From: a bacterium
GTDB taxonomy: Bacteria; UBP15; UBA6099
DNA: 64,000 bases
NCBI GenBank assembly: GCA_041664945.1
Contig: JBAYJY010000002.1
Span: 8,721-72,720, forward strand
Direction: 5' to 3'
A program made the position numbers and the translations under genes. Of this stretch, positions 7,078 to 35,547 are shown piece after piece (position 1 is the first letter of the stretch; every line of letters starts with the position of its first letter). Under the pieces are notes generated by a model, which saw only the letters and a program-made list of their open reading frames with translations, did no database searches and was not told the origin of the DNA.

Positions 7078-8082
7078 TTACAATGAGCCTTTCCAGATAA
7101 AAGAGCCGGAAACATTGATATAGCCGATCTTTCTGCCTGCCATTTCGACGTATATGTAACCGCCGGGTTTTATATCCGCGTCTCTGAATTGAGGATTGAA
7201 CAGGAATTGGCCGTCTTTGACGATGACTCCCCACTTGCCGCTCGATTTCACCGCCGCAAGACCGGAGTTGAATAATGTTACATCGTCGTATTGCGGCGCG
7301 ATCACTACTTTCCCTGATTTATCGATATATCCCCAGCGGTTCCCTTTTGCGATGCCTGCCCGGCCTTCGCGAAAACCTGTCGCTCCGTCGTACTTCGGCG
7401 GGAAAATCATTTTCCCTGTTTTGTCTATATAACCCCATTTGTCTTTGATTCTCACCGCCGCAAGGTTTTCCTCGAATGGTTTCGCCGCATCAAATTTTTG
7501 TTTGAAAGCCTGCTTGCCTGTCGCGTCAATGAACATATACCGGCACTCTGTTTCAGAACACGTGTCAGCGACCGCCGCCAGCCCCTGGGAAAAATCCGAT
7601 GCGTTGTTGAATTTCGAATCGATGACGATCTCTCCGCTTGCGTTTATATAGCCCCATTTCTCGCCGATTTGAACGGGCGCAAGTCCGCCTATGAAGGAGC
7701 CGGCGGCGATATATTGCGGCGCTATAACCACCTCGCCGGATGTGTTAATATAGCCCCACGAGCTGTCGATCTGCGCTCCCGCGAGTCCTTCGGAGAACGG
7801 CATTGTATTCTCGAATTGCGGTTTTATCGTCACGTTGCCTTGCGCGTCGATATAACCCCATTTTGAACCGACGGTCATGTCTGCCAAGCCTTCGGAAAAA
7901 GTTCCGATACCATTATATTTAGGAGGCACGATAACTCGGCCGAGCCTGTCTATCAGCCCCTGTTTGCCGCTGACATATATCAAAAGAAGGTCTTTGCCCG
8001 CGGCTGTGTTATCGGCGCCGAAACATGAGGAAGCGCTTAGAGCCGCCAGCAGCAATAACAGCGAGGCGCTTAACTTTTTCAT
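7078..8082 (-). CDS. secreted WG-repeat (KWG-type) protein
   Basis: 334 aa. The signal peptide is MKKLSASLLLLLAALSASSCFG. About 9 tandem ~35-aa repeats follow, of the form KWGYIDxxGxxVIxPxYD. Confidence 0.8.
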   Translation of the reverse strand: MKKLSASLLLLLAALSASSCFGADNTAAGKDLLLIYVSGKQGLIDRLGRVIVPPKYNGIGTFSEGLADMTVGSKWGYIDAQGNVTIKPQFENTMPFSEGLAGAQIDSSWGYINTSGEVVIAPQYIAAGSFIGGLAPVQIGEKWGYINASGEIVIDSKFNNASDFSQGLAAVADTCSETECRYMFIDATGKQAFKQKFDAAKPFEENLAAVRIKDKWGYIDKTGKMIFPPKYDGATGFREGRAGIAKGNRWGYIDKSGKVVIAPQYDDVTLFNSGLAAVKSSGKWGVIVKDGQFLFNPQFRDADIKPGGYIYVEMAGRKIGYINVSGSFIWKGSL

Positions 8083-8376: not shown

Positions 8377-11300
8377 ATGGCGTCAGCTAAGAAACGCTCA
8401 TTCCGGCTCATATTGTCATTTTTTATCATTTTCATTTCAACACAAGCGGGGGCAAAAGAGCTAAAGCTAACTCAGGGTTGGCAAATAGTAAGTGTTCCGG
8501 TCAAAGCCATCTCGTCAGGCGAAACGCCAAGCGACATAGCGGCAAATACTTCGATATATTCGTATGATGCCGGTCAAGTGGCAGAGGCGGTAGGCAAACC
8601 GCTTGTTTCCGGACGGGGCTATTGGATATACATGCGCGAAGCAAAGACAATAAGCGTCCCCGAAGTGAAGGCCGGACCGGACAGCGCATTCAAGGTGAAA
8701 CTCGAACCGGGCTGGAACATCATCGGAAACCCATACGAATATCCGCTGGACCCGGCTGTGTCGTTGCGCATATCAGGCGCCGCGTTTCAGGACTCGAAGA
8801 AAGTGATTCCCGTTTTGTTGACGTATGACGGCGATAGCGGAACATATCGATACGCGCAGATTCTCGAACAATGGAAGGGGTATTGCGTTTATGCGAATGA
8901 GGCGGCAGAACTGGAGATAATTCCGGCGATATATGAAGGGCCTGTGCCCGATATGCCGGATTTGTATGTGTTTCCGTTTAACGGAGGGGCTCAGATAGCG
9001 GATGCGGGCAACGGGGTAAAGTATGTAGCCGGCCAGTTGATCGCGGCGTTTGGCTCCGGAATTACGTATGAAGAAGCGTCGCGCGTCGCGCGCGAGGCAG
9101 GATTGTCCGTGGCCGGCGGGGATCGCGATGCCGGCGTGTACCAATTACAGATACCGCCGGGAATGAATGCAGAAGCGGCGGAGTCGGCGCTCGCAGCCGC
9201 TGGAGGCGTAATAGAGGTAGCGAAAAATTATCTATTTAAAGTGCAGGCTGTTCCGAATGATCCGGTTTTCACCGTGCCGCCGGTTGCAGGGGCGGGGTGG
9301 GGTTTTGAGAAGATTGGAATGCCGGGACTATGGGCGGAGTTCGCGCCGAAGAACGCGCCGGTTGTCGCCGCGCTTGACACCGGCGTCGACAAAACGCATC
9401 CTGAACTCGCCGGCCGCGTTTTGGAAGGCAGGAACTTCGTGAACTCCTCGGCGGGCGCGGACACGAGTGATGAGAACGGGCATGGAACGCAGGTAGCGGG
9501 GGTGATAGCGGCGGCTGGCAACAACTCGGCGGGCATGGCAGGCGTGTGCTGGAACTGCCGGATTCTGCCGGTGAAGGTGTGCGACGCGTCGGGACAGTGT
9601 CCCATGATGTCGATAATGAACGGAATAAGTTATGCGGCCGACATGAAGGCTCCGATAATAAATCTCGGAATCGGCGGCGACATGCCGCTCGACGACGCTG
9701 CGAAAGCAATAATCAGGATTTATGTAAAGTTGGCCCGGTCGAAGGGATCGATAATTGTGGCGCCCGCCGGGAACTCGTCTACGGACAATTTCGGAACTCT
9801 CACCGGAACGGACTCCGGGGTGGTGAATGTCGCGGCGACGGACGCGAACGACAATCGAGCGACATTCTCGAACTATGGCGGCATGGTAAACGTGGCGGCT
9901 CCAGGAGAGAATATTTATACGACCGATATGAACGGCGGATATAAGACGGTGAGCGGCACATCGATGAGCGCCGCGTTTGTATCGGGCGCGGCGGCGCTGC
10001 TGATTTCCGCAGGCGACAATTTAACTGTTGCGAATGCGATAGACCTGATCGCGGTGACTGTTGACCCGGTAAGCTCGAACGAGCCGATCGGCGGAAGACT
10101 GAACGTATCCTTGGCGATGAAATATTACAGACATTACACAAATAAGGCGCCGGAGATTGTGAATGTCGAAGTGATGCCGGGCGCAACGAACAAATCATAT
10201 ACGCTGAAAGCTAATGTCACCGATCAGGATGGGGACGCAATTACATACAAGTGGGCGGCTGGGAGCGGAGTTTTCAGCGCCGGCGCGGCCCAAAAGACAT
10301 GGACGCTGGACAAAGAGATAAAGGGCGTATACACGATAACGCTGACGGCGACCGACGCTTTCGGAGGCTCTGCTGAAAGCCGCGTTGGCGTGAATGTGAG
10401 CGGAACCGACCCGGCGCAGTTGACGGTGAAGGTCATTGATGCGAACGGCGTGGCGGTGACGGGGGCTATGGCGGAAGTGGGAGGCTCCGGGACGTTCACG
10501 ACCGGAGCGGACGGGCGGTTCTCCGTAAATGCCGGAGCGGCGGACGGCGTTTACGCTATTAAGATAAAGATAATAAAAGAAGGATTTGTCGACAAATTCG
10601 CAACGTTCCGGGTTTTAGCAGGTTCGCTTGAAAACGGAACGCAGAACATGACGGTTGAGCTTGAGCGTACGCCGACAGGTTCTGGAGCGGCGCGAGGACT
10701 TATAGTGCATGCTGACGGCACGACTGACACGGCGCTGCCGTCGAACGGAAGCGCTGCGGCGACGGTGACCGTCGGCGCGACAGACAGGGCTGTAGAGTTC
10801 ATCACGCCCGAGGTTGGCGGCGAACCGGCGAAAGTCGGCATTAAGTTCGGCGATGAAACAGGCGCCGGACCAGGAGCGGCGGCCACGCTCGGAGTTACAG
10901 GCCAAGTCACGGCCTCGATAATTTACGGCGATCCGACATCGGAAAGCGACATATTAAGAATGTTCCCCGGTGAATTTCTGACGAATGGCGACACGGGTTT
11001 CGGCGGTTCGGGAGAAGGCGCGCTTGTAACGGGCGGTTTCGCGCGAATCGATCTGACCGACGCGGCGGGCGCCCCGATCAAGAATTTCGCGGCGGGCGCG
11101 GAGGCGCTGGTGACAATGCGAATGCCGTTCGGCGTGCAGAACCCTGAAACTGGAAAAATGGCGGCGCAGGGCGATACGATTCCGATTCTCTTCTACGACG
11201 AGAATGCTGGCGAATGGATTGTAGAGCATGAAGCGGCCGGCTCGGTGAAACGCGCCGAAATCCAGCAGGACGCGGACGGAATGTTCGTGCAGTTCAAAGT

Positions 11301-14300
11301 GGCGCACCTGACGACATGGAATCTGGATTGGAAATCCATGTTGTGTCCGGAAGGACAGCCGACAATAAAGCTATATGACATGAACGGAATCTCGCTTGCC
11401 GGGCAGTCGGTATATGTGACTATTAACATATCGGGTTGGAACTCATGGCCTAATATAGTAACGGACGGATTTGTAAGTTTCCCAAGGGCGCCCAAGGATA
11501 TAGACTGGCAGTTGTGGGCGCAATGGAACGGATATACGTCAAAAGTGATGACGGTAAAGAATTGCGTTGTAGAGGAAAATCTCCAAGTCGGCCCGTGCGA
11601 TATGAAATGCGGGAACGACGCCGCATGCAGTGATGGGAATAATATGACGTATGACGTCTGCATGAGGCCGGGGCAGTGTACGGCGTCCTGCGTCAACATG
11701 CAATGCGCGCCCGTTTGCAACTCTGACGCCTCCTGCGACGACGGCAAACCGACGACGACGGACACATGCAGGAATGCAGGCGCGTGCGGCGCGTACTGCT
11801 CACACGTTAGCTGCAATGTTGGCTGCGGCTCAGACGCGAACTGCGAGGACGGCGATCCCGACACGCTCGACGTTTGTCTGCTGCCGGGCACATGCAATGC
11901 GACATGCAAAAAATATGACGTTCATTGCGATGTGCAGTTGGATAAAGTGAATTACTTCGCCGGCGATGAGATGCAGATCACTCTGACAGCCGTAAATAAA
12001 GGGCCGGCGGCGGTGACATGCGGAGTGGAGTCGGCGCTGAAAAGGGAACAGTCGATTGCGGTGTGGAATTCTTTCGACGACGGCATTTACATCACAATCG
12101 CTCCGGGTGATTCAGTGACGCAGACAATATATAAAACTATTCCGGACACCTGGGTCGCCACAGATTCCAACGCCGGGTCGGATTATGATTTGTACACAGT
12201 CCGGGAGGATGGAACGCGTTGGGACGGACGCGACAACTTCAACATTCACGTGCACAAGCCATGCGTGGTCGCATGCAAGACGGACGCGGAGTGCGCCGAC
12301 ACAAATCAAAATACTTATGATGTTTGCAAGGCTCCCTATCAATGTTTCTCTGCATGCAATCATCTGACATGCCCAGTGGCATGCGCTTCCGACTACGGCT
12401 GCGATGACGGCAACTCCGCGACAACGGACAGTTGCGCGAACCCGAAAACTTGCGACGCGAAGTGCTTCAACGGCTCGTGCGCGATCAAATGCACAACCAA
12501 TGCCGGATGTGATGACGGCAATCCGATGACCGCCGATTTATGCAGTCAGCCGGGCACATGCTCCTCGGCCTGCGTCAATGCGAACTGCACGCCTGTTTGC
12601 TCGAACGACTCGCAGTGCGACGATACCGATCCGCTCACGAGAGACACATGCGAGAATATCGGTTCGTGCGAAGCGACTTGCGCGCACACTGCCTGTGCGC
12701 CTGCGTGCGAGTTGGACTCGGAATGCGATGACACCGACCCGCTGACGATAGACTCCTGCCTGAATCCGAATACGTGCAATGCAGCCTGTACGCACGTCGC
12801 TTGTTCGCCGATATGTTCTGCTGATGGAGACTGTGACGACAATAATCTGCAAACATTGGATACATGCAAGAATCCGAACACATGCGCCGCTGAGTGCGAA
12901 AACTCGGCATGCACGCCACAATGCACTCAAAACTCTGACTGTAATGACAACAACGCGCTCACGCCTGTCGATGAATGCGTCAATCCGAACACATGCGCCG
13001 CGGAATGCAAAAACTGCACGCCATTCTGCGTAAACGATGTCAAGTGCGATGACTTCAATCTGGCCACGCGCGACAAGTGCGAAAACCCGAACACATGCAG
13101 CGCAACATGCTCCAATACGACATGCACGCCGGCGTGCGTAAATAACGCCGGATGCGACGACGATAACGCAGCTACTGCTGACGAGTGCTCAGCGCCGAAT
13201 ACTTGCGAAGCATTATGTAAAAATGTCGTTCCGGCGTGCAACAATAACGCCGACTGCAACGACAATAATCCGGGAACGGCGGACATCTGCTTGTTTCCGG
13301 GCAAGTTCTCGGCGAAATGCTCCAATACGTACAATTCGGTGTTTGTGTCCACGGCGAAAAACAGTTCGTGCTACATTGATGGCGGAACCGTAAAATGCTG
13401 GGGGTCAAATGGATATGGACAGCTTGGCGACGGCACGACAAATTATTCAGCAACGCTGGTAACTGTCAGTGGAATCACAAATGCGACAGCGCTCACGTCG
13501 GGGACGGACCACACATGCGCTCTGCTTTCCGACGGCGGCGTGAAATGCTGGGGTATAAATGATTACGGAACGCTTGGAAATGGAACGGGGATTGATTCAA
13601 GCGTCCCTGTAAGCGTTACGGATATGATGAACGTTGTTTCGGTTTCAGCAGGAGGCTCAAGCGCATGCGCTGTGATGAGAGACGGCTGGCTGAAATGCTG
13701 GGGGTATAATAAAAACGGAGAACTCGGAGACGGAACAACTAAGAACGCTTTCGTTCCCACGACTGTCGTTGGAATCACGAATGCGATATCCGTTTCGGTC
13801 GGATCCGGCTTTGCTTGCGCGCTTCTCAACAGCGGCGGCGTGAAATGCTGGGGCGATAATGCATTCGGAACTCTTGGGAACGGAACACCGGTCAATTCGT
13901 TATTGCCGGTTGCCGTCAGCGGGATAACCAACGCAGTTTCGGTGTCCGCCGGGAACAAGCAAGCGTGCGCGCTCCTTTCCGGAGGGAGCGTCATGTGCTG
14001 GGGGATGACTATTGTGGACGGGCAATTAAATATTGTGGAAACTCCGATAGAAATGCCCGGCGTAACAAACGCGTCGGCGGTTTCCGTCGGTAGTTTTTAC
14101 GTATGCGCAGTTATATCCGGCGGAAGTATGAAATGCTGGGGTGGCAACACTGAAGGACAGCTTGGGAGTGGCTCTGTTTCCACCATGCTTCCTCCCGCGC
14201 CTGTACCAGTTCTAAACGTCTCTGACGCTGTCAGCATTTCTGCAAGCGTATATCATACATGCGCGTTTCTTGCCTCTGGAAACGTCAAATGCTGGGGGAA

Positions 14301-14460
14301 TAACGATTATGGCAAGCTCGGCAACGGAACTACCGTTAGTTCAGCTACGCCTGTAGATGTGACGGCGTGTTTGACGGATGTCCACTGCGACGACGGCAAT
14401 TCGCAAACTACGGATGTATGCAACAAGCCGGGGCAGCCGGATGCTTATTGTACGCATTGA
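8377..14460 (+). CDS. giant secreted multidomain protein: subtilisin-like (S8) protease, Ig-like domains, Cys-rich repeat arrays and an RCC1-like beta-propeller
   Basis: 2027 aa. The signal peptide is SFRLILSFFIIFISTQAGA, and an SD-like GGGGGAA precedes the ATG. The S8 triad motifs are AALDTGVD (Asp codon 9376-9378), HGTQVAG (His 9481-9483) and GTSMSAAF (Ser 9961-9963). A PKD-like segment lies at ~10165-10400, a carboxypeptidase-regulatory-like segment at ~10417-10615, and a CARDB-like segment at ~11932-12255. Confidence 0.85.
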   Translation: MASAKKRSFRLILSFFIIFISTQAGAKELKLTQGWQIVSVPVKAISSGETPSDIAANTSIYSYDAGQVAEAVGKPLVSGRGYWIYMREAKTISVPEVKAGPDSAFKVKLEPGWNIIGNPYEYPLDPAVSLRISGAAFQDSKKVIPVLLTYDGDSGTYRYAQILEQWKGYCVYANEAAELEIIPAIYEGPVPDMPDLYVFPFNGGAQIADAGNGVKYVAGQLIAAFGSGITYEEASRVAREAGLSVAGGDRDAGVYQLQIPPGMNAEAAESALAAAGGVIEVAKNYLFKVQAVPNDPVFTVPPVAGAGWGFEKIGMPGLWAEFAPKNAPVVAALDTGVDKTHPELAGRVLEGRNFVNSSAGADTSDENGHGTQVAGVIAAAGNNSAGMAGVCWNCRILPVKVCDASGQCPMMSIMNGISYAADMKAPIINLGIGGDMPLDDAAKAIIRIYVKLARSKGSIIVAPAGNSSTDNFGTLTGTDSGVVNVAATDANDNRATFSNYGGMVNVAAPGENIYTTDMNGGYKTVSGTSMSAAFVSGAAALLISAGDNLTVANAIDLIAVTVDPVSSNEPIGGRLNVSLAMKYYRHYTNKAPEIVNVEVMPGATNKSYTLKANVTDQDGDAITYKWAAGSGVFSAGAAQKTWTLDKEIKGVYTITLTATDAFGGSAESRVGVNVSGTDPAQLTVKVIDANGVAVTGAMAEVGGSGTFTTGADGRFSVNAGAADGVYAIKIKIIKEGFVDKFATFRVLAGSLENGTQNMTVELERTPTGSGAARGLIVHADGTTDTALPSNGSAAATVTVGATDRAVEFITPEVGGEPAKVGIKFGDETGAGPGAAATLGVTGQVTASIIYGDPTSESDILRMFPGEFLTNGDTGFGGSGEGALVTGGFARIDLTDAAGAPIKNFAAGAEALVTMRMPFGVQNPETGKMAAQGDTIPILFYDENAGEWIVEHEAAGSVKRAEIQQDADGMFVQFKVAHLTTWNLDWKSMLCPEGQPTIKLYDMNGISLAGQSVYVTINISGWNSWPNIVTDGFVSFPRAPKDIDWQLWAQWNGYTSKVMTVKNCVVEENLQVGPCDMKCGNDAACSDGNNMTYDVCMRPGQCTASCVNMQCAPVCNSDASCDDGKPTTTDTCRNAGACGAYCSHVSCNVGCGSDANCEDGDPDTLDVCLLPGTCNATCKKYDVHCDVQLDKVNYFAGDEMQITLTAVNKGPAAVTCGVESALKREQSIAVWNSFDDGIYITIAPGDSVTQTIYKTIPDTWVATDSNAGSDYDLYTVREDGTRWDGRDNFNIHVHKPCVVACKTDAECADTNQNTYDVCKAPYQCFSACNHLTCPVACASDYGCDDGNSATTDSCANPKTCDAKCFNGSCAIKCTTNAGCDDGNPMTADLCSQPGTCSSACVNANCTPVCSNDSQCDDTDPLTRDTCENIGSCEATCAHTACAPACELDSECDDTDPLTIDSCLNPNTCNAACTHVACSPICSADGDCDDNNLQTLDTCKNPNTCAAECENSACTPQCTQNSDCNDNNALTPVDECVNPNTCAAECKNCTPFCVNDVKCDDFNLATRDKCENPNTCSATCSNTTCTPACVNNAGCDDDNAATADECSAPNTCEALCKNVVPACNNNADCNDNNPGTADICLFPGKFSAKCSNTYNSVFVSTAKNSSCYIDGGTVKCWGSNGYGQLGDGTTNYSATLVTVSGITNATALTSGTDHTCALLSDGGVKCWGINDYGTLGNGTGIDSSVPVSVTDMMNVVSVSAGGSSACAVMRDGWLKCWGYNKNGELGDGTTKNAFVPTTVVGITNAISVSVGSGFACALLNSGGVKCWGDNAFGTLGNGTPVNSLLPVAVSGITNAVSVSAGNKQACALLSGGSVMCWGMTIVDGQLNIVETPIEMPGVTNASAVSVGSFYVCAVISGGSMKCWGGNTEGQLGSGSVSTMLPPAPVPVLNVSDAVSISASVYHTCAFLASGNVKCWGNNDYGKLGNGTTVSSATPVDVTACLTDVHCDDGNSQTTDVCNKPGQPDAYCTH
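9250..10125 (+). other. peptidase S8 (subtilase) catalytic domain of the giant protein
   Basis: The D-H-S triad motifs appear in canonical order and spacing (DTG ... HGT ... GTSMS). Confidence 0.8.
11596..11931 (+). repeat. coding repeat block A: 3 copies of a 36-aa six-cysteine module
   Basis: The three copies are CDMKCGNDAACSDGNNMTYDVCMRPGQCTASCVNMQ, CAPVCNSDASCDDGKPTTTDTCRNAGACGAYCSHVS and CNVGCGSDANCEDGDPDTLDVCLLPGTCNATCKKYDVH. Confidence 0.8.
12262..13332 (+). repeat. coding repeat block B: 10 tandem copies (108-nt period) of the same six-cysteine module
   Basis: The pattern read from the translation is C-x2-x-C-x3-x2-C-[DN]-D-x-[ND]-x2-T-x-D-x-C-x-[NQ]-P-x-[TS]-C-x-A-x-C-x3. An example copy is CSPICSADGDCDDNNLQTLDTCKNPNTCAAECENSA. 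Confidence 0.85.
13364..14364 (+). repeat. seven RCC1-like repeats (predicted 7-blade beta-propeller)
   Basis: There are seven ~50-aa units with [GS]xVKCWGxNxxGxLGxGT ... V ... G[IV]TNAxxVSxGxxxxCAL. Confidence 0.8.
14368..14457 (+). repeat. orphan 14th Cys-rich module at the extreme C-terminus
   Basis: CLTDVHCDDGNSQTTDVCNKPGQPDAYCTH follows the propeller and has the same CDDGNxxTxDxC core. Confidence 0.7.
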
Positions 14461-20832: not shown

Positions 20833-20868
20833 AAAAAAAGAGAGCCGCTAAGGCTCTCTTTTTGTTTT
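20833..20868 (+). terminator. rho-independent terminator after the ABC operon
   Basis: The sequence is AAAAAAAGAGAGCC-gctaa-GGCTCTCTTTTTGTTTT, an 8-bp stem followed by a T-tract. Confidence 0.8.
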
Positions 20869-20991
20869 AAACTATAATCCGAATTGATTCAGGTTGTACG
20901 GATAGAGGCAGAGAAACGACGTGAAATGAAACAAACGGATAAAAATTGCGTGTTGTTTTCAATCAAAAAACATTGTGTTTGACGCTTTTAT

Positions 20992-22542
20992 GTGATTTCT
21001 GTTATTATTTGCGCAGTGGATGCCAAGCATGGAACGACAACTTTCATAAGCTCCAAAGCCAATCAACAGCTTTTAATTATTACTGCTGAGCTGGTGATAT
21101 CCTTTGCTCTTATTTATATTTCCGTTTACCTGGACTGGCCTCAGCATGATATTCTGCGTTACGCGATTCTTGTCCCGGTATACCAGGCAGGCGTATATTA
21201 CGGACTCGTCGGCGGAATTATTGCAAGTGTCGTGTCCGTTCTGTCGTTTCTGCCGCTGATACCCGTTGATCCGTTAATTCGAGCCATGTCGTACGGCGTT
21301 CCAACGTTTATTCTGATGCTTGTGTTCATCATTTTCTTCGGCGCCTATATAGGCGCGACCTTAGGCTACGCCCATAAGACACAGAAATACATTGACGGCC
21401 TTTCTCTCGCAATCATGAAAATTGCGCGCGAAGTGGAGACGAGAGATGTAATGATAAAGCTGGCTGAAGAATCTGTCGCCATGCTTGACGCAATGTACGC
21501 GGCCGTTTTTATTGACGGCGCCGCGAAGGAAAACAGTGGCGGCGAGATACTGGCGCTTGAAGCTCAAAGCGGGGAACTCAGATCACTGAAAGATGTGCCC
21601 GAAGACAATGCGCTGATCAGCGCCGCGCGAGAAGGCTTGACGATTGTTTCAAATTCCATCTCCGGGGATTCGCGCCTTCAGTCTTTGCCGGGCGGCGAGT
21701 TGCTGAAAACAGCGGCGATCATCCCCGTGGTCATGAAGGATCGCTCGATAGGCTCGCTGCTTGTGTGCAACAAAAAAAACGGCGACTCTTTCACGGAAGA
21801 AGACTATGCCGTTCTTAAAATGTTAACGGAGGCGACCGCCGGAACCATTCTCAACATAGAGCAGGAGCGAGAGCGGCAGGAGGAAAAACTTCGCGTGGAA
21901 CAGATGAAGGAACTGTTTTCAAGATATGTATCCGCTTCCGTCGCCGACTTCGTTCTTGAGAATCCGGAAATAATGAAAGGCCACTGGCAGGAAGTGACCA
22001 TGCTGGTGTCCGACGTGCGGGATTTTACAAGAATTTCAGAGACTCTTTCTTCAAAAGAGGTTGTGAGGCAGCTAAACGAATACTTCACACGCATGGTGGA
22101 TGTCATTCTCGACCACAAAGGGACGATAGATAAATTCGTGGGCGATTGCATCATCGCCTATTGGGGCGCGCCGGCGCCCGATCCGGAGCATCCGCTCAAC
22201 GCCGCAAGGGCCGCGCTTGCGATGGCCAGGGCTTTGGACCTGATGAACGCCGAATGGCAGGATGAAGACCGCCCTCAGTTCAAAACCGGCATCGCTATTC
22301 ACACCTGCAGGGCGCTAATGGGCAATATCGGCGACGATCGGAAAAAGGCTTTCACTATCATGGGAGAGGAAGTCGAAAAAACCATACAGATCGAAGCCAT
22401 GACGAAAACCCTGAATGCCGGGATCATCGCTACAGATGAAACCTATAAAGCCATTGCGGGGAAAATTGACTGCGAACTGATATCGCAGTCAGGCGCGGCA
22501 GGAATGCAGAAGCTTTACAAAATACAGACTGGACAATGTTGA
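20992..22542 (+). CDS. membrane (4 TM)-GAF-class III nucleotidyl cyclase, Asn/Arg-deficient ('C1-like')
   Basis: 516 aa with a GTG start per the track, which is uncertain. The cyclase motifs VTMLVSDVRDFT and DKFVGDCIIAYWGAP are intact. The canonical GDTVNxASR segment reads GEEVEKTIQ. A GAF-like region contains IIPVVMKDRSIGSLLVCNKKNGDSFTEED. Confidence 0.8.
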   Translation: MISVIICAVDAKHGTTTFISSKANQQLLIITAELVISFALIYISVYLDWPQHDILRYAILVPVYQAGVYYGLVGGIIASVVSVLSFLPLIPVDPLIRAMSYGVPTFILMLVFIIFFGAYIGATLGYAHKTQKYIDGLSLAIMKIAREVETRDVMIKLAEESVAMLDAMYAAVFIDGAAKENSGGEILALEAQSGELRSLKDVPEDNALISAAREGLTIVSNSISGDSRLQSLPGGELLKTAAIIPVVMKDRSIGSLLVCNKKNGDSFTEEDYAVLKMLTEATAGTILNIEQERERQEEKLRVEQMKELFSRYVSASVADFVLENPEIMKGHWQEVTMLVSDVRDFTRISETLSSKEVVRQLNEYFTRMVDVILDHKGTIDKFVGDCIIAYWGAPAPDPEHPLNAARAALAMARALDLMNAEWQDEDRPQFKTGIAIHTCRALMGNIGDDRKKAFTIMGEEVEKTIQIEAMTKTLNAGIIATDETYKAIAGKIDCELISQSGAAGMQKLYKIQTGQC

Positions 22543-23390
22543 TGCTGTTAAAATACAGGGCGACGGAATCGTTTTACGAGGGTTTTCAAAAAACCAACAT
22601 TTTCGCCGACAGAACCGTGCGAATCACTGCTTTTATCTTTGTCATCGCCGGGCTGATCGACATTCCCTTCAAATTTATATTCCCCGCCGGTTTCAAATCA
22701 GAACTGGGCTCCATGCTCGTTTTTATCCTGTTGATTTTTCCCATATCCACGCGCCTTATCGGCGGAATATCGCGAGCGTCATGGAAATTGTATGCCGGAT
22801 TCGGGATATTCTTTCTTTCCGGGCTGATCCCGACATTATGGGGCTCGCCGGTTTTTCTTCTATTAATGATTCCCTCGGTTTGCTTTCTGGCGCTTCTTCT
22901 TCGCGCCGAGCCCGGCATTCTTCGCAGTTTCGGTTATTCGGAGAAACCGCTTGGCATGCGCGAAGTTCTTATAGCGCTGCTGACGTTTAGTCTATTCGCT
23001 CTTTTCACCTACATAGCGACGGTAATGGTGCAGAAGTCAAAATTCATTCTTCATTCTCCCATATCATATCTGTTGCAGTTTCTTATCGTAGTCCCCGAAT
23101 ACCTTGTTGCATGGGGCATCTTATACGGAGTTTTGATGAAACGTCTGTTGGAGCTGAAATTTGAGCCGATGGTTCCGATTTTTCTCAACATTGTTTTCAC
23201 GCTTGTATGGTGGGTTTCCACAGCGGTCAATGTCAAAGACCCGGGCATGATGTTTGCCGGGATATTCGCATGGGCCATAGCAGTGCATATGATTTCAGGA
23301 ATGGCCTATTATTTCACGGGATCCGTAAGGCCGGTTTTATTTGCGTGGTCGCTGAACTACATTGTTTTTGTCGCTTCATCCGTAACATGA
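22536..23390 (+). CDS. polytopic membrane protein, CPBP (CAAX-protease/Abi)-like fold lacking catalytic residues
   Basis: 284 aa. It overlaps the upstream cyclase by 7 nt. The segment VVPEYLVAWGILYGVLMKRL ... FTLVWW ... GMAYYFTGSVRPVLFAWSLNY parallels CPBP motifs EExxxRG / FxxxH / HxxxN, but the Glu/Arg/His positions are substituted. Confidence 0.5.
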   Translation: MLMLLKYRATESFYEGFQKTNIFADRTVRITAFIFVIAGLIDIPFKFIFPAGFKSELGSMLVFILLIFPISTRLIGGISRASWKLYAGFGIFFLSGLIPTLWGSPVFLLLMIPSVCFLALLLRAEPGILRSFGYSEKPLGMREVLIALLTFSLFALFTYIATVMVQKSKFILHSPISYLLQFLIVVPEYLVAWGILYGVLMKRLLELKFEPMVPIFLNIVFTLVWWVSTAVNVKDPGMMFAGIFAWAIAVHMISGMAYYFTGSVRPVLFAWSLNYIVFVASSVT

Positions 23391-23402
23391 GGGCGCGCAG
23401 CC

Positions 23403-24308
23403 ATGAGTGTTGAAAAAATCGATATCGCGTCTGAAGTCGCCGCGCTGAAATTCAGAACGGGCAGTTTTGACGTCTGGAAAAAAACAAACCTGCTCAGGGA
23501 ACCGATATTCATACATGCTGTTCTCATAATTGCGCTTTATGGCATCGGGAACGCTGTTGTTCAGATATTATTCAAAACAAACCATATATCATTTTCATTA
23601 AAAGAGGCTTCATATCCTTTATTGTATCTATCTCCTATACTTGGAGGTTTGTACATTGCCGGCGGTTTGAACAGACACAGCGTCTGCATCTCTGTCGTTT
23701 ATATGTTTTTATACGCTCTATTTGAATATGTGATTAGCCAATATTTTCACAGTATTCAATCAATTGTCGGAATATTTCAATTTATTCCCGGATGCGCTCT
23801 GATAGTTTGGTGGATAGTGACCAAACCTGAAATTATGGGCAAGCTCGGCATGAAAAAATCCGACTCTCTGACGGTTTCACTGTATGCTTTTATTTTGATT
23901 CTGATCATTGCCTCCTATGCGGCGCACCTTCTTATTGTATATGGTTTCAAGTTGGAGTTCAGGCCAGTTGAAATGGCAGCGTATTTTTTAGGCAATTTCA
24001 TAACCTGCTTGTTTGTTACCAGCTATTGTTTCGGCATGTGGAACCTGCTGAAGAAGCGAGGCGCAAACACATTTCAGGGTATTCTGGCGCTCATGGCGCT
24101 TTTCGGCCTCATAGAGGCCCCGGTCATGATAGCTTTTGCGCTTATTGGAATAGCGAGCCCGGCGATGGCGGTTGCCGGCATCGTCTTGAACTTGATGCTT
24201 ACATTGACCGTGATGCACTTTTCCTTCAGCGCGCTGAAAAACTCATTGACGGCGACATTCCTGTTGGCGATGGTCATGCTGCTTTTGAAGGCGGCGGGGG
24301 TTTTCTAA
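23403..24308 (+). CDS. polytopic membrane protein, second degenerate CPBP-like paralog
   Basis: 301 aa, starting 12 nt after the previous gene. It has 8 hydrophobic helices. The C-terminal half (CFGMWNLLKKRG ... HFSFSALKNSLTATFLLAMV) has the same topology, and I see no intact metalloprotease motif. Confidence 0.45.
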   Translation: MSVEKIDIASEVAALKFRTGSFDVWKKTNLLREPIFIHAVLIIALYGIGNAVVQILFKTNHISFSLKEASYPLLYLSPILGGLYIAGGLNRHSVCISVVYMFLYALFEYVISQYFHSIQSIVGIFQFIPGCALIVWWIVTKPEIMGKLGMKKSDSLTVSLYAFILILIIASYAAHLLIVYGFKLEFRPVEMAAYFLGNFITCLFVTSYCFGMWNLLKKRGANTFQGILALMALFGLIEAPVMIAFALIGIASPAMAVAGIVLNLMLTLTVMHFSFSALKNSLTATFLLAMVMLLLKAAGVF

Positions 24309-24334
24309 AACCGACAGCAGCGCCGGAAAGCCTG

Positions 24335-25801
24335 ATGATGGAACGAAAGAAAAAAATACTTTTTATAATTATCTCAAGCGCGCTATGTCTTGTGGCGACA
24401 ATGAGCGCTCACTATTGGGATATGCCGATGTGCGTGTGGACGAGCCCTCTCGTCGCAGTTCCCGTCGTCTATGCGGGAATCCATTTCCGGCGCGCCGGTT
24501 CCGCCGCCACGGCTTTCATTTTGTTAGTCGCGCAGGTGCCGGTAATACTCATATACGCTTCGCGGCATCTTGAAGGAGGAACGAAGTATTTCACATCTAT
24601 TGTGACGGCTTTGATCGTTGCGATATATGTGGGTCACAGGCAGCGGAAGAGCAGGGATAATTCCCGGCATCTCAACAAAATACACGACACGGTCAGGCGG
24701 ATTCAGCAGAATATCGAACCGAAACTCCTTCTTTCTGAACTGGAGGAACAGTTTAAGGAAATAGGAAGCGCTGATTCGGTTGAAATCTGTCTGCTGGACC
24801 AGGAAGGCATTCTAAGAGAATACAAATCCGGCGAGGAAGTGTCTCCGGACGACCACGCTTACTATAAGATTCTCAAGAATAGGAATTTTGTCGTAAGCGC
24901 CAATGTTCCGAACGATGCGCGTTTTGAGTATATCGGAGGAATGGAAAAAAACGACGCGGCGGAGCAGTTCGCGATATTTCCAATCGAGTATGGAGGCGCG
25001 GCAAGAGGAGTGATATCCATAATCGAATCAAGAGACGGGAGGCTGGGCAAAGAAGAGATTACATTTCTCAACGCGTACAAAAAAGCCATTGAAAATGCCC
25101 TTGAGGTTGTTGAGAAACGAGAGGATAAAATCAAGCACGAGCTTCAGAAGAAACGGATTAGAGACACGTTTTCATCCTATGTGTCGAGAAGCGTCGCCGA
25201 GGAGATATTAAAGGACCCCGACAAGCTTGAGCTTGGAGGGAAAAGCCAGATCGTAACCGTGATGTTCACCGAGATTGTGAATTTCAAGGCGCTTCAGAAG
25301 ACTGTGGAGCCGTCGTTGCTGTTTGACTCCCTTAATGAATATTTCGCCGCCGCGATTGACACTATATTCGAATACGACGGAACTCTGGACAAGTTCATAG
25401 GAGATAACGTCATGGCATTCTGGGGGGCGCCGATTCCAATGCCGGACAGCGAACTGAGAGCCGTTCAGTGCGCGTTGAGTTTGAATAGAAAGGTCAGCGA
25501 ACTAAATTCCCGTTGGAGACAGGAAGGTAGGGAGGAGTTCATTTTCTCGATAGGAATAAACTCGGGGGAAGTGGTTGCGGGCAACATTGGAAGCATTCGA
25601 CGCATGGAATATACGATCATTGGAGACACCGTCAATACGGCCTCGCGAATAAAATCTATCTCTATATCGAAAAGCATCCCGATATTGGTTGGAGAAACGA
25701 CATTTCAAAAAGTTAAAGACAGGGTTCAAATCGTTGAAAGATACGATGCGACTGTCAAAGGAAAAGCGGAAGCGATATCAGTATATCAACTGTCAGTGTG
25801 A
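24335..25801 (+). CDS. membrane (4 TM)-GAF-class III nucleotidyl cyclase, canonical Asn/Arg ('C2-like'), Glu at first metal-Asp position
   Basis: I chose the start at ATG 24335 (MMERKKKILFII), because the track ORF's 5' extension from 24026 overlaps the previous gene. Motifs are VTVMFTEIVNFKAL (Glu where Asp is expected), DKFIGDNVMAFWGAP and YTIIGDTVNTASRIKS. Confidence 0.8.
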   Translation: MMERKKKILFIIISSALCLVATMSAHYWDMPMCVWTSPLVAVPVVYAGIHFRRAGSAATAFILLVAQVPVILIYASRHLEGGTKYFTSIVTALIVAIYVGHRQRKSRDNSRHLNKIHDTVRRIQQNIEPKLLLSELEEQFKEIGSADSVEICLLDQEGILREYKSGEEVSPDDHAYYKILKNRNFVVSANVPNDARFEYIGGMEKNDAAEQFAIFPIEYGGAARGVISIIESRDGRLGKEEITFLNAYKKAIENALEVVEKREDKIKHELQKKRIRDTFSSYVSRSVAEEILKDPDKLELGGKSQIVTVMFTEIVNFKALQKTVEPSLLFDSLNEYFAAAIDTIFEYDGTLDKFIGDNVMAFWGAPIPMPDSELRAVQCALSLNRKVSELNSRWRQEGREEFIFSIGINSGEVVAGNIGSIRRMEYTIIGDTVNTASRIKSISISKSIPILVGETTFQKVKDRVQIVERYDATVKGKAEAISVYQLSV

Positions 25802-25936: not shown

Positions 25937-26485
25937 TCATTTCGGTCGCAAATCAATGTAGTAATTATCGCCTTGGCCGGAGGAGGGCGGCTGCGTTCCG
26001 CCGGTTCCTTCCTTCTGCGTGGCTTTGAGTTTTTCGATTTCAGCTTTCTGTTTTTCGAGTTCTTCCTGCAGTTTCTTAAGCTGTTCGGGCTCGACGTAAT
26101 CAGCCGGTTTCCCGCCGGCTACGCCTGCGGCCTGACCGCCCTGCGCAGCAACGTTTGAGGCGGCGTTCAAGCTCATTCTGGCGGCGCCTCTGTTTATCGC
26201 CACGCTGCCCGCCTGGCCGATTAATGGCCTTACTTCGTTCTCGGGATTCTTCTCTCCCTGCCCGGAGTTGCTCTGCTGCATTCCGGCCGGTTTTGTTTCA
26301 TATATGCCTTCCCGATAGTCTATTATTTCACTTTCCTTGGTCTGGATATCCGTTTTCCCCTGCGGCTCGAAGTAAGCGATCGACAACATGCCGACAAAGA
26401 TTATGATCAGCATGAAACAGAAGTCGATGTAAGGCATCAGAAAAGTGACGCGTTTTTTGCTACCCTTGCTGCTTTCTTGCTTCAT
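25937..26485 (-). CDS. ExbD/TolR-like transmembrane protein with non-canonical low-complexity/coiled-coil periplasmic part
   Basis: 182 aa. The N-terminal TM VTFLMPYIDFCFMLIIIFVGM matches the ExbD pattern PFIDVMLVLLIIFMV, including the conserved Asp. The remainder is Gln/Gly/Ala-rich plus a coiled coil (EQLKKLQEELEKQKAEIEKLK). Confidence 0.55.
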   Translation of the reverse strand: MKQESSKGSKKRVTFLMPYIDFCFMLIIIFVGMLSIAYFEPQGKTDIQTKESEIIDYREGIYETKPAGMQQSNSGQGEKNPENEVRPLIGQAGSVAINRGAARMSLNAASNVAAQGGQAAGVAGGKPADYVEPEQLKKLQEELEKQKAEIEKLKATQKEGTGGTQPPSSGQGDNYYIDLRPK

Positions 26486-27515
26486 AGCCGAATAACATGT
26501 TCAAGATAATCGAGAGCACAAGACCGGTGATGGTCGGCTCGATTTTGACGTAAATGCCATAGCCTATCGCATTGATGTCTCGCTGCGCGATGGCCGGCCC
26601 GATGAGAAGGCCGAGCCCGAACAGCGTACAGATCAGACCCGCGCCCTGCGCGGTTGACGCCATGGTTACAAGCTTGTCCTCATAAGTTTCGGTGGAGACC
26701 AAACCGATCGCCGAAGTAATTAGAATGACGATGCATACCCACCATGTGCTGAGCATGTAGTTGATTGCCAGAACCATGCAGACCGTTAGGAAGAAACCGA
26801 TTACGATCATGTCCTTCCAGCCTTCGGGTTTGCCGCGCACTGCGCCGTGAATCGTCCGGATTATCCACAACAGGCCGATGACAACCCACGCGATCAGCAC
26901 ATAAGGTTTGAGTTTCTTTGTGACCTGGTCTTTTCTCGCTTTTGCGATGATCGGCGCGAGAGGGTTGCCATGCTTTTCGCCGGACAGAATCGTTTCCTTG
27001 CCGGGTTTGTTGTAAGCTTTAATCTTCTCAGGGTCCAGCGTCAGCGCCATCGCATGCTTATTTTCCTCGACCCGGAAAAAGCCGCTTTCCGCAGTGGCTG
27101 CAAGAGGGATCATAGTCCTGTCGCCGTATAAAAAGGGAGATATGGGCAGTATCCTCTGAGTATCGCCGAGGTCGATTTCAGGATTGTTGATTGCCATCCT
27201 GATAGTGCGTCCGCCGGGAAAAGTTATCTCAGCCATCTGGTCTTTTTTATACCATGTAACATCAGCGCGCAACGCCTCCGCCACGAAACGAAGCGGCACA
27301 AAGATAATTCCGCCTCTTTCCACGGGCGTCACGTCGGGCGTGACTACTTGTTTGTTCACAATGATCGTATAGTCGCTGCGCACCTTGATGTCGCCGCCGA
27401 GCGCTTCTTCGGCCATATTGGCAGCCTGCGGCGTGATATCGACAGCAAACGCCGGCAGCGCCGCAAAAATCAAAAAAATCAGGATCAATAAGGTTTTTAT
27501 CCGCAAAAGCCTCAT
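26460..27515 (-). CDS. fusion of a copper-amine-oxidase-N-terminal-like ('stalk') domain with a MotA/TolQ/ExbB-like channel
   Basis: I chose ATG 27515 (MRLLRIKTLLILIFLIFAALPAFA), which is preceded by GAGGAAAGGAA; the track start is GTG 27557. The N-domain reads IIVNKQVVTPDVTPVERGGIIFVPLRFVAEALRADVTWY...DRTMIPLAATAESGF. The C-terminal 3 TM contain AGLICTLFGLGLLIGPAIA and GIYVKIEPTITGLVLSIILN, which is ExbB-like. Confidence 0.6.
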   Translation of the reverse strand: MRLLRIKTLLILIFLIFAALPAFAVDITPQAANMAEEALGGDIKVRSDYTIIVNKQVVTPDVTPVERGGIIFVPLRFVAEALRADVTWYKKDQMAEITFPGGRTIRMAINNPEIDLGDTQRILPISPFLYGDRTMIPLAATAESGFFRVEENKHAMALTLDPEKIKAYNKPGKETILSGEKHGNPLAPIIAKARKDQVTKKLKPYVLIAWVVIGLLWIIRTIHGAVRGKPEGWKDMIVIGFFLTVCMVLAINYMLSTWWVCIVILITSAIGLVSTETYEDKLVTMASTAQGAGLICTLFGLGLLIGPAIAQRDINAIGYGIYVKIEPTITGLVLSIILNMLFGYEARKQQG

Positions 27516-27536
27516 TTCCTTTCCTCTGTCTGGTTG

Positions 27537-27555
27537 GGCGAACACAAGGTTCGCC
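27537..27555 (-). other. intercistronic hairpin (GGCGAAC-cuugu-GUUCGCC)
   Basis: A perfect 7-bp stem with a 5-nt loop lies between the stop of the 83-aa gene (27557-27559) and the SD/ATG of the ExbB-like gene. Confidence 0.5.
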
Positions 27556-27556
27556 A

Positions 27557-27808
27557 CTATGTTTCTTCCGTCTCTATTATCACTTCTTTACGCAGCAGTT
27601 CTTTTGCTGTGAATTCATCCTTATCGAGTGTAAAAATTGGTATATCCACCTGTGACTCGGCAAGCGGATAATTCATTGTAGAAGCGGCATTCTCCTTTAC
27701 GTAGCAGCGTATGCCGTTTGCTTCCAGCAAGCCTTTGATTATATTTGCCTCTTGAATCCCTATCGCCGAATACACTTTGACCCATTTCATGTCTTTTCCG
27801 TGGTCCAT
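27557..27808 (-). CDS. small DUF2007-like protein
   Basis: 83 aa. KVYSAIGIQEANIIKGLLEANGIRCYVKE...VDIPIFTLDKDEFTAKELL resembles the DUF2007 small domain. Its start abuts the stop of the upstream SRPBCC gene. Confidence 0.45.
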   Translation of the reverse strand: MDHGKDMKWVKVYSAIGIQEANIIKGLLEANGIRCYVKENAASTMNYPLAESQVDIPIFTLDKDEFTAKELLRKEVIIETEET

Positions 27809-33363: not shown

Positions 33364-35547
33364 ATGCCGGTTGTCTTTAGAGATAAACTGGACGACCTAC
33401 TCCGAAAAGCCGGCGAGTATATGGATTTCGACGGCCTCGAACTTGTGCGCAAGGCGTACGAGTTCACGGTGGAGAGCAACCGGCGGTTTGAGTTTCTTCG
33501 CATGTCGGGCGAACCTGCGATATCGCATCCTCTTGCGGTCGCCTCGCAACTCACCGAGTGGCTCATGGACCCGGAAACAGTTGCCGCCGGAATTCTTCAC
33601 GACATCATAGAGGACCCCAACATTCACGCGCTCCAACTGCGGGCTACTTTCGGAGACACCGTCACGCGCATGGTGGACGGCGTCTCGAAACTGAAAAAAT
33701 TCGAGCTCCCCGGCACGACCACAGCCGACACGGCCTACCATTATAAAATCTTTCTCGCTGTCGCGCAGGACACGCGCGTCGCGCTGATAAAAATCGCCGA
33801 CCGGCTTCACAACCTGCGCACGCTCGACAGCATGCCCGGATACAAGCGCCTGAAAACCTGTTATGAAACAGAACAGATTTTCATTCCGCTCTCGCGGTTT
33901 CTGGGCATGGAAGCCGTCGCCGAGGAAATGGAAGACATCTCGTTCCAGTTCGCCGAGCCGGAAGAGTTCGCGCGGCTGCTCGATTATCTCGAAGAGGTAA
34001 TTCCGGAAGAGAACGAAATATTCGAGCAGGCGATCGGACAGCTTGAGCCGGCTCTTCTCGAACTGGGACTCGATCACCAATCGCACATATTCCGTTACAA
34101 CCTGACGCACACGCGGCGCATTCTCGACTCGCAGGACAGGCCGATGCCCAAAACAGGGTTGGTCGAAGTCACCGTGCCGGAGGAATTGGATTGCTACCGG
34201 GCGCTTCAGGCGGTCCATAAAACGTTCCAATGCCTGTCGATCGGTTTTCAGGACACAATAAATTTTCCGTCGATAGATTTAAAGCGGATGCTTGAGACGA
34301 GTCTGTTAGGCCCGTTCGGGCGTCCGTTTACAGTGCGCATCTTCTCGCGAGAAATGAAAGCGGTGAACCGGTGGGGCATAGTTCCTTTTCTTTCGGAACC
34401 CCATGAGCTTAAGCGCACGGACCTGCTCGCGGACCGCGTCGAACTGATCCAGCGGATAGTCAGCGATTTCAGGGCGCAGGCCGGCGACCGCGACGAAAAA
34501 ACGCTTGTCGATATAATGACCCGCATGGTGCTAAAGCAGAAGATATTCGTGTTTACGCAGGACCGCAGGCGGCTCGAACTTCCGGAATCGTCGACCGTTC
34601 TCGATTTCGCATATCTGATGGGGCCGGAAATCGGCGACCGTTTCAGCAAGGCGATGGTATATCATCAGACGGTGGACATGAGTTATCAGCCGCAGTTGTT
34701 CGACCATTTGAACGTAATCACGGACCGCGACGCAGCGCCGCGCGTCGAGTGGCTGGAACACGCGCACACGCCTGAAGCGCAGATGCATATCAAGAAATAT
34801 CTCGCCGCCGCGCCGCTTGAAAAAGCAGCCGAAGAAGGACGCCGGGCGCTGCTGCAGAGGACACGGGAAGAGGGCATCTCCGCCACAGGAAAACTTGAGG
34901 ATATTGAGCTGCTGCTTCCTCCGGTAATCATGTTCCTCGGTTTCAACACGGAGGAAGAATTTTTTCAGCAGATCGGGCGCGCCGAATTCGATCTGAACGT
35001 CGCTGCGGATTTCCTTAAAGAACAATACAAGCGTAAAGTGCTGATTGACAAAAAAGAACTTGATCCGGTGATCATCGGCCAGCAGATATATCAAACAGCG
35101 CTTCCGATAGGCATCGTTGAGTCTGAGCGCATTCCGAAGGCGCCGCTTTTCTCGTGCGAGATATGTTCGCCCGCGCCGGGCGACGAGATTGTGGTGAGCG
35201 CGTCCGCCAAAAAGGCGACGATTCATCGAAAGGACTGCGCCAACATAGGGCGCGGATTCCTGCGCGGCCCGAAGCAATCGCCCGCAACGTGGAAGGACAC
35301 CGGCGGCCGACGTTTCCCCGTTCGCATCAAACTTAAACTTTTCCCGACGAAGGACATTCATCAGAAAATCCTTAAATTGATAGCTAAATCGGGAGCGCCG
35401 ATCGCCGCCTATCAGTCCGGAGCCGCCGACGAAGGCGGACTTGAACTGATGGAGTTCATTATTGAAGTTCAGAATGTCTCGCTGGCTCAAAATGTCTGCG
35501 ACGAGCTGCTTTCCATTAAGGATGTCGTAATTGCAAAACGAGTCTGA
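33364..35547 (+). CDS. long RelA/SpoT homolog: intact HD hydrolase, degenerate synthetase-like domain, TGS and ACT-like C-terminus
   Basis: 727 aa. HD motifs are HPLAVASQL, AAGILHDIIEDP and KIADRLHNLRTL. The synthetase-region positions read GFQDTINFPSIDLKRMLETS and FTVRIFS, instead of RFKDYIAxPKxNxYQSLHT and EVQIRT. A TGS-like segment reads IFVFTQDRRRLELPESSTVLDFAY. Confidence 0.85.
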   Translation: MPVVFRDKLDDLLRKAGEYMDFDGLELVRKAYEFTVESNRRFEFLRMSGEPAISHPLAVASQLTEWLMDPETVAAGILHDIIEDPNIHALQLRATFGDTVTRMVDGVSKLKKFELPGTTTADTAYHYKIFLAVAQDTRVALIKIADRLHNLRTLDSMPGYKRLKTCYETEQIFIPLSRFLGMEAVAEEMEDISFQFAEPEEFARLLDYLEEVIPEENEIFEQAIGQLEPALLELGLDHQSHIFRYNLTHTRRILDSQDRPMPKTGLVEVTVPEELDCYRALQAVHKTFQCLSIGFQDTINFPSIDLKRMLETSLLGPFGRPFTVRIFSREMKAVNRWGIVPFLSEPHELKRTDLLADRVELIQRIVSDFRAQAGDRDEKTLVDIMTRMVLKQKIFVFTQDRRRLELPESSTVLDFAYLMGPEIGDRFSKAMVYHQTVDMSYQPQLFDHLNVITDRDAAPRVEWLEHAHTPEAQMHIKKYLAAAPLEKAAEEGRRALLQRTREEGISATGKLEDIELLLPPVIMFLGFNTEEEFFQQIGRAEFDLNVAADFLKEQYKRKVLIDKKELDPVIIGQQIYQTALPIGIVESERIPKAPLFSCEICSPAPGDEIVVSASAKKATIHRKDCANIGRGFLRGPKQSPATWKDTGGRRFPVRIKLKLFPTKDIHQKILKLIAKSGAPIAAYQSGAADEGGLELMEFIIEVQNVSLAQNVCDELLSIKDVVIAKRV

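Follow-up and report, generated by a model that had tools for sequence, protein, structure and literature searches.

Can two class III nucleotidyl cyclases, each lacking part of its catalytic machinery, work as a single enzyme in a bacterium, and what would two membrane proteins encoded between them contribute? This question is raised by a cassette of four plus-strand open reading frames (ORFs), cyc1-M1-M2-cyc2, which was read from the ORF list and the sequence at positions 20992-25801 of a 64,000-nucleotide stretch of DNA (the window) from a bacterium of the GTDB lineage UBP15; UBA6099 (assembly GCA_041664945.1, contig JBAYJY010000002.1, positions 8,721 to 72,720 of the forward strand). A sequence-only reading of the window had proposed that the outer genes encode paralogous cyclases with complementary active-site defects, that these form an obligate heterodimer with the asymmetry of mammalian C1/C2 enzymes, and that the two middle genes encode catalytically dead CPBP-like proteins. 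In the analysis described here, the most probable product of cyc1 and cyc2 is a class IIIb adenylyl cyclase that is anchored in the membrane and works only as a heterodimer, with M1 and M2 as its putative membrane partners.

Catalytic residues of the two cyclases

The products of the two outer genes match PF00211, the family of class III nucleotidyl cyclases (55.3 bits for cyc1 and 88.2 bits for cyc2, with a cut-off of 21.9), and a sequence search of the PDB returned cyclase matches for each (n = 38 and n = 54, respectively). Their paralogy extends from end to end and takes in the N-terminal hydrophobic and middle regions (25% identity, E 3e-48). In cyc1, approximately 4 transmembrane (TM) segments (aa 26-125) precede a GAF domain (aa 156-288) and the cyclase domain (aa 331-489); the cyclase domain of cyc2 occupies aa 305-486. 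The shared 4 TM/GAF/cyclase architecture of the sequence-only reading therefore stands with regard to paralogy and the cyclase domain, and is weaker in its other two parts. Each N-terminus has about 4 hydrophobic segments, the count of 4 TM coming from hydropathy and alignment only, and the GAF domain is marginal in cyc1 (PF01590, 24.1 bits against a cut-off of 22.4; GAF_2 and GAF_3 fall under their own cut-offs) and sub-threshold in cyc2 (GAF_2, E 0.19). Orthologs of cyc1 carry clearer GAF matches (precomputed GAF and GAF_2), and cyc2 aligns to the GAF region of cyc1; a GAF-like region may be assigned to cyc2 from this paralogy.

In class IIIb cyclases, a Thr replaces the substrate-specifying Asp, and Lys together with Thr is the signature of a class IIIb adenylyl cyclase; the definition of this subclass reportedly goes back to Linder and Schultz in 2003. 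Both T455 of cyc1 and T427 of cyc2 stand in the column 7 residues ahead of the Asn position, as in class IIIb. The top structural relatives of both proteins, 2w01, 3r5g, and 1wc0, belong to class IIIb as well (E 1e-22 to 1e-28).

The catalytic columns were set by aligning the two proteins with HMMER to class III cyclases of solved structure (the IlaC chimera 6fht, Cya2 2w01, and CyaB 3r5g), and the codons were checked. Cyc1 carries the first metal-binding Asp (metal 1, D341), the substrate Lys (K381), the second metal-binding Asp (metal 2, D385), and the base-specifying Thr (T455). The positions of the transition-state Asn and Arg are occupied in cyc1 by E462 and Q466, and its VKGK hairpin is lost through a deletion of approximately 3 residues. 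Cyc2, in turn, has a Glu at metal 1 (E313) and keeps the substrate Lys (K353), the metal-2 Asp (D357), the base-specifying Thr (T427), the transition-state Asn (N434) and Arg (R438), and the hairpin (K475/K477). The six canonical residues thus read D K D T E Q in cyc1 and E K D T N R in cyc2, so that neither chain is complete and the full set is present only across the two chains jointly. The residue of cyc1 that corresponds to R484 of VC1 is basic as well. The importance of this position and of the KGK hairpin is known from the structures of transmembrane adenylyl cyclases (tmAC) and of CyaC.

When the two proteins are aligned to 3r5g and 2w01, the motifs quoted in the sequence-only reading do fall in the catalytic columns of both cyclases. 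Its interpretation of these motifs was correct as far as it went, having missed that cyc1 retains the Lys and the Thr and that cyc1 has lost the KGK hairpin. Equivalents of the Asn and Arg were also sought elsewhere in cyc1 by alignment to the solved structures; none were found, and E462 and Q466 occupy these columns.

Spread of the cassette and its middle genes

The order cyc1-M1-M2-cyc2 on one strand recurs, between unrelated flanking genes, in 10 metagenomic lineages that have diverged from one another, and in this the conserved synteny that the sequence-only reading had named as something to look for was recovered. Every readable contig with M1 or M2 homologs shows this arrangement of a cyclase, M1, M2, and a second cyclase, all in one orientation. 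When 1.84 billion representatives were searched exhaustively with cyc1 (phmmer), further full-length relatives were obtained at 34-46% identity (P0019-P0027), as well as the cyc2-like proteins P0034 and P0040. All 6 of the cyc1-search relatives whose genomic context was checked belong to such a cassette, and here too the flanking genes are unrelated (L016/L017, L018, L019, L020, L021, and L022). On the contigs with M1 or M2 homologs, the cassette is accompanied by genes for a GH38 mannosidase and for a PAS kinase in L001, by DAGK and an insertion sequence (IS) element in L003-L005, and by Exo_endo_phos or FecR in L013 and L014. Between members of the ten cassettes, pairwise identity goes down to 31% for cyc1, 34% for cyc2, 20% for M1, and 17% for M2. 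Gene junctions in the divergent cassettes are mostly 1-4-nt overlaps of stop and start codons, especially at cyc1/M1 and M2/cyc2; because these two junctions overlap most often, translational coupling within the pairs is suggested.

Two of the neighborhoods have features of their own. In the single lineage represented by L003-L005, a DDE_Tnp_1 transposase gene lies directly 3' of the cassette (~11434-13107, minus strand). The L020 cassette sits between a chemotaxis cluster (MCP, CheW, and CheA) and an opposite-strand gene for a HAMP-cyclase.

The asymmetry of the two catalytic domains is conserved along with the gene order. Across the cyc1 family (n = 15), the D/K/D/T residues are invariant and the KGK hairpin is absent in all members, while the Asn position is filled by E, D, N, A, or R and the Arg position by Q, H, R, K, E, or A. 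Across the cyc2 family (n = 10), the K, D, T, N, R, and KGK residues are invariant, and metal 1 is Glu in 9/10 sequences and Lys in the remaining one (L020), never Asp. Since L020 has a Lys, the metal-1 position of cyc2 is presumably not a required metal ligand; this also speaks against Glu being just a tolerated ligand there. As a background set, 172 catalytic domains were taken from the closest 150 representatives and their cluster members. The canonical D-K-D-T-N-R combination is present in 132 of these 172 nearest domains, and domains with Glu at metal 1 occur in the cyc2 family only. Because the Asp pair is kept only where Asn, Arg, and KGK are lost, and vice versa, cyc1 and cyc2 appear to be used together. 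These data suggest that selection maintains the complementary defects, a pattern which would make sense only if both cyclases act jointly.

The middle genes are much more restricted in their distribution. M1 and M2 have fewer than 10 homologs each among 5.8 billion proteins, all from unclassified bacterial metagenome-assembled genomes, and the 8 homologs of M1 in this set all lie within the cassette. Word-indexed searches for a wider family, including searches with a merged M1+M2 profile, gave cassette members only. Genome and metagenome scans for M1 and M2 likewise returned close relatives only, and the distant cassettes were reached solely via the exhaustive cyc1 search. A comparison of M1 with M2 by hhalign gave a probability of 57% with shallow profiles and of 86% with deeper ones (E 4.7e-6, 248 columns in register). 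M1 and M2 are thus distant paralogs that form an orphan family and mirror the cyclase pair, so that the cassette consists of two paralog pairs.

The CPBP label for M1 and M2 was rejected as unsupported: neither the two proteins themselves nor 26 members of their families, distant orthologs among them, gave a match to PF02517 at E<=10, and NCBIfam likewise gave no CPBP signal. M1 has no Pfam, NCBIfam, or PDB match, and profile searches of PDB sequences with M1 and M2 returned nothing at E<=10. AlphaFold2 (AF2) models of the two proteins have approximately 9 long helices each and are of low to moderate confidence (predicted local distance difference test, pLDDT, 51 for M1 and 67 for M2). A Foldseek search of the PDB with these weak models, in which Rce1 (4CAD) was sought, gave no match with E<0.5 or TM-score>0.25; the models being weak, a very remote fold relationship to CPBP is possible. 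CPBP proteins are recognized by the motifs EExxxR, FxxxH, and HxxxN, whose definitions are said to come from Pei and Grishin in 2001. In M1, the CPBP-like residues vary among orthologs, the Glu of PEY being replaced by K, Y, L, or V and H251 by N, G, or Q; M2 has no EE motif, and its H272 becomes T, S, or M in distant orthologs. The sequence-only description of the middle genes as catalytically dead CPBP-like proteins is therefore unsupported. The helices of M1 and M2 hold very few conserved polar residues. The two proteins, probably as a heterodimer, may associate with the 4-TM anchors of the cyclases as a sensor or scaffold; hints in this direction are that the four genes are always found together and that overlaps are commonest at cyc1/M1 and M2/cyc2.

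A proposed composite active site and its alternatives

The active site of a class III cyclase lies at the dimer interface, where one chain provides the metal-binding Asp residues and the other provides the Lys, Thr/Asp, Asn, and Arg (PMC8815786; PMC9552081). The Lys and Thr/Asp recognize the base, and the second chain also contributes a Lys of its KGK hairpin that binds phosphate. In a cyc1:cyc2 dimer, cyc1 would supply the metal role only, through D341, D385, and the basic R484-equivalent residue, and cyc2 would supply the whole substrate and transition-state role, through K353, T427, N434, R438, and K475/K477. One complete ATP-cyclizing site would be assembled in this way from the Asp residues of cyc1 and the K/T/N/R/K residues of cyc2. 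The second pocket, built from E313/D357 of cyc2 and K381/T455/E462/Q466 of cyc1, would be degenerate and could serve regulation, as it does in mammalian tmAC, soluble adenylyl cyclase (sAC), and soluble guanylyl cyclase (sGC). Neither homodimer would have a complete site. Cyclic AMP (cAMP) is the predicted product because of the Lys and Thr pair. The heterodimer proposed in the sequence-only reading is supported by the alignment columns, the conserved asymmetry, and the synteny; the physical dimerization, the cAMP product, and the regulatory role of the second pocket are inferred.

Several points weigh against this model. The cyc1 defect is not uniform among orthologs, apart from the absent KGK hairpin: cyc1 of L018 keeps both Asn and Arg, and cyc1 of L022 keeps the Asn. 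A Glu can in principle ligate Mg or Mn, so that cyc2 homodimers might retain some activity. The functional weight given here to the KGK hairpin and the R484-equivalent residue is presumed from the structures of tmAC and CyaC, and the role proposed for M1 and M2 is drawn solely from their co-occurrence with the cyclases.

The Glu at metal 1 leads to an alternative in which cyc2 is the real enzyme, a homodimer with Glu as a metal ligand, and cyc1 is a regulatory pseudo-cyclase that either titrates cyc2 into less active heterodimers or acts as a sensor of a nucleotide or GAF ligand. Cyc2 does have 5/6 of the canonical residues and the KGK hairpin, the change from Asp to Glu is conservative, and Asn, Arg, and KGK are gone from cyc1 in most lineages. 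We nevertheless consider this alternative unlikely, given that metal 1 is a Lys in L020 and an Asp in 0/10 sequences of the cyc2 family, and that the residues surrounding the second metal motif drift in that family (KFIDDG, KFIEDN). Moreover, both Asp residues persist in 15/15 cyc1 sequences despite the other losses, and a regulatory pseudoenzyme would not need them. A different possibility is that neither protein cyclizes, the pair being a degenerate nucleotide-binding receptor or scaffold for M1 and M2 as a transporter or channel. In its favor, both cyc1 and cyc2 depart from the canonical six residues, and no part of the cassette is more lineage-specific than M1 and M2. Against this, the joint catalytic set is complete and invariant across sequences that share as little as 31-34% identity, which argues for a working composite site rather than decay, and the paucity of conserved polar residues in the M1 and M2 helices also counts against a transporter or channel; on balance, this reading is improbable.

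The least probable explanation, to which we give hardly any credence, is chance adjacency of two independent homodimeric cyclase sensors with unrelated membrane proteins, such as CPBP-type pseudo-proteases. It is common for a bacterial genome to encode many class III cyclases (PMC9552081), and the stretches VVPEYLVAWG in M1 and HFSFSALKN in M2 superficially resemble CPBP motifs. This explanation is contradicted by the synteny, as the same gene order with stop/start overlaps is found in 10 lineages with differing flanks. It is also at odds with the lack of any CPBP signal in Pfam, PDB profile, and Foldseek searches, and with the inconstancy of the motif-like Glu and His among orthologs. An obligate cyc1:cyc2 heterodimer with M1 and M2 as membrane partners therefore remains the favored explanation. 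A more ambitious version of it, which we regard as tentative and rather doubtful, is a four-subunit membrane signaling machine in which an M1/M2 heterodimer is the ligand-sensing module for a split C1/C2-type cyclase and the degenerate pocket is allosteric for a nucleotide or bicarbonate. In that pocket, the Lys and Thr of cyc1 (adenine- and bicarbonate-binding) are kept in 15/15 sequences.

The catalytic arrangement proposed for the cassette has precedents among eukaryotic enzymes. The mammalian tmAC C1/C2 pair is a close parallel: one domain holds the metal-binding Asp residues and the other holds the Lys, base-specifying, Asn, Arg, and KGK residues (VC1/IIC2, 1AZS/1CJK; AC9, 6R3Q; PMC8815786). 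As proposed for the cassette, tmAC has one active site and one degenerate pocket, which in tmAC is regulatory (forskolin). In the PDB search, cyc1 pairs with C1 chains and cyc2 with C2 chains. On the other hand, tmAC is one polypeptide of class IIIa (Asp) with 6 TM segments per half, whereas the cassette has two genes, is of class IIIb (Thr), has approximately 4 TM segments and a GAF region per chain, and adds two membrane-protein genes; in addition, cyc1 retains the Lys and Thr and cyc2 retains the second Asp. Both sGC and sAC are among the PDB matches of cyc1 and cyc2. The alpha/beta sGC heterodimer is made of the products of two paralogous genes and has a catalytic site next to a pseudo-symmetric one, and sAC (ADCY10; C1-C2) is a class IIIb pseudo-heterodimer, whose degenerate site reportedly binds bicarbonate, as Kleinboelting et al. 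are said to have found in 2014. Unlike the cassette, sGC and sAC are eukaryotic and soluble, have H-NOX, PAS, or coiled-coil sensor domains or none, and lack accompanying membrane proteins.

A related division of residues is reported for a bacterial enzyme in the laboratory. For Rv1625c of M. tuberculosis, Guo et al. (2001, cited in PMC9552081) reportedly showed that one active site is rebuilt when a mutant in the metal Asp is combined with one in Asn/Arg, although neither mutant is active by itself. Those mutant pairs are laboratory constructs of a natural homodimer, whereas the division in the cassette is natural, conserved, and spread over two genes. The closest relatives of the cassette cyclases with solved structures are bacterial class IIIb homodimers (P. 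aeruginosa CyaB, 3R5G; Synechocystis Cya2, 2W01; Spirulina CyaC, 1WC0). They share the Lys/Thr signature, and these homodimers and GAF-cyclases such as Anabaena CyaB1 have, like the cassette proteins, sensor domains N-terminal to the cyclase. In contrast to the incomplete chains of the cassette, a single chain of these enzymes has the complete set of catalytic residues, and their two sites are equivalent (PMC9552081). Complementary defects are also seen in tandem two-domain cyclases among the nearest relatives (P0033, P0041, P0031, P0029, and P0056). In P0033, domain 1 reads R-K-P-T-N-R (without the metal Asp) and domain 2 reads D-S-D-T-T-A (without Lys, Asn, and Arg). Because such fused pseudo-heterodimers exist, the asymmetry per se is not unique to the cassette. 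Proteins of the P0033 type differ from the cassette in that both domains are fused in one polypeptide, and nothing ties them to M1/M2-like genes.

Layout of the locus and meaning of the cassette

The features of the locus are collected in Table 1. The tight packing of the four genes described in the sequence-only reading is confirmed by the ORF coordinates, with a 7-nt overlap at cyc1/M1, a 12-nt gap at M1/M2, and a 26-nt gap at M2/cyc2. The same reading had placed a terminator 5' of the cassette, and folding does locate a hairpin with a T-run there (dG -18.6 kcal/mol, z -4.9; 0/200 shuffles fold equally well). This hairpin was omitted by a consensus terminator scan, although it is the strongest nearby by folding, and negative results of that scan are untrustworthy for this reason. 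The genes 5' of the cassette encode an ABC ATPase and two ABC-2 permeases and end at 20812; the terminator closes this transporter operon and isolates the cassette from it. The genes 3' of the cassette sit on the opposite strand, and with both borders marked in this way the cassette is a discrete unit. Folding gave no convincing terminator 3' of cyc2 (z +1.2).

Table 1. Signals and genes of the cyc1-M1-M2-cyc2 locus, in window positions.
Feature	Position	Strand	Description
Intrinsic terminator	20835..20868	+	12-bp stem, 5-nt loop, then TTTTTGTTTT
Promoter-like site	20979..21008	+	TTGACG, 18 nt, TG-TATTAT; overlaps GTG 20992
cyc1	20992..22542	+	516 aa; ~4 TM, GAF, class III cyclase; putative C1-like subunit
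M1	22536..23390	+	284-aa polytopic membrane protein, ~9 predicted helices, orphan family
M2	23403..24308	+	301-aa polytopic membrane protein, ~9 predicted helices, distant M1 paralog
cyc2	24335..25801	+	488 aa; ~4 TM, GAF-like region, class III cyclase; putative C2-like subunit

The promoter-like site is the best consensus match of the region, with 10/12 positions and the TG of an extended -10 element, and is a consensus match only. The start of cyc1 is uncertain, being either GTG 20992 or GTG 21016, neither of which is preceded by a Shine-Dalgarno sequence. The promoter-like site ends 8 nt 5' of the in-frame GTG 21016. Cyc1 might begin at this second GTG, possibly on a leaderless mRNA. The other starts have more familiar contexts: GAGGG lies 9-13 nt 5' of the ATG of M2, and ATG 24335 of cyc2 is preceded by GGAAAG, with orthologs beginning near the same position. 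A longer cyc2 ORF from TTG 24026 was rejected, as it would overlap M2 by 283 nt and has no ortholog support.

Elsewhere in the window, no rRNA or other Rfam family was found. Two minus-strand genes 3' of the cassette overlap each other by 26 nt. The product of the first (25937-26485; 182 aa) has a single TM segment, a low-complexity Gly/Ala/Gln-rich tail, and no family match, and that of the second (26460-27557) has a Cu_amine_oxidN1 (stalk-like) domain and TM segments at its C-terminus. Further 3', a plus-strand gene (33364-35547) encodes a 727-aa protein of Rel/SpoT length with HD_4/HD, TGS, and ACT domains and no match to the RelA_SpoT synthetase domain at E<=0.001; it may be hydrolase-only or have a degenerate synthetase domain. 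On the 5' side, a 2027-aa protein (8377-14460, plus strand) has a fervidolysin-type prodomain, an S8 subtilase domain, and PKD/Ig domains, ends in an RCC1-repeat propeller, and adjoins a minus-strand gene (7078-8082) for a protein with 7 WG_beta_rep repeats.

In eukaryotic heterodimeric class III cyclases, it is established that a partner complements absent residues (PMC8815786). For bacteria, textbooks and reviews portray the class III cyclases as symmetric homodimers in which both centers are productive, and the origin of the asymmetric C1/C2 arrangement is placed in a eukaryotic duplication and fusion (PMC9552081). In the literature searched in full text, whose coverage here is incomplete, no natural bacterial two-gene heterodimeric class III cyclase was found, nor any described system with this gene order, in agreement with the sequence-only reading; heterodimerization is mentioned by Shenoy et al. 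in 2004 (PMC2447327). The catalytic principle is thus known, and what is new is its bacterial, split-gene, and conserved form with two orphan membrane partners.

If the four-subunit reading is true, prokaryotes would have an equivalent, spread over several genes, of the 12-TM pseudo-heterodimeric cyclases of eukaryotes, and the functional asymmetry of the catalytic dimer would have evolved in bacteria independently of gene fusion. Under the heterodimer model itself, sub-functionalization into a metal-binding and a substrate/transition-state subunit could arise and persist in prokaryotes without fusion, and the pair would offer a simple two-plasmid system for asking what a degenerate pocket does. 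Two orphan membrane-protein families would also be tied to cAMP signaling, which would give them a first functional handle and suggest a new type of membrane sensor for cyclases.

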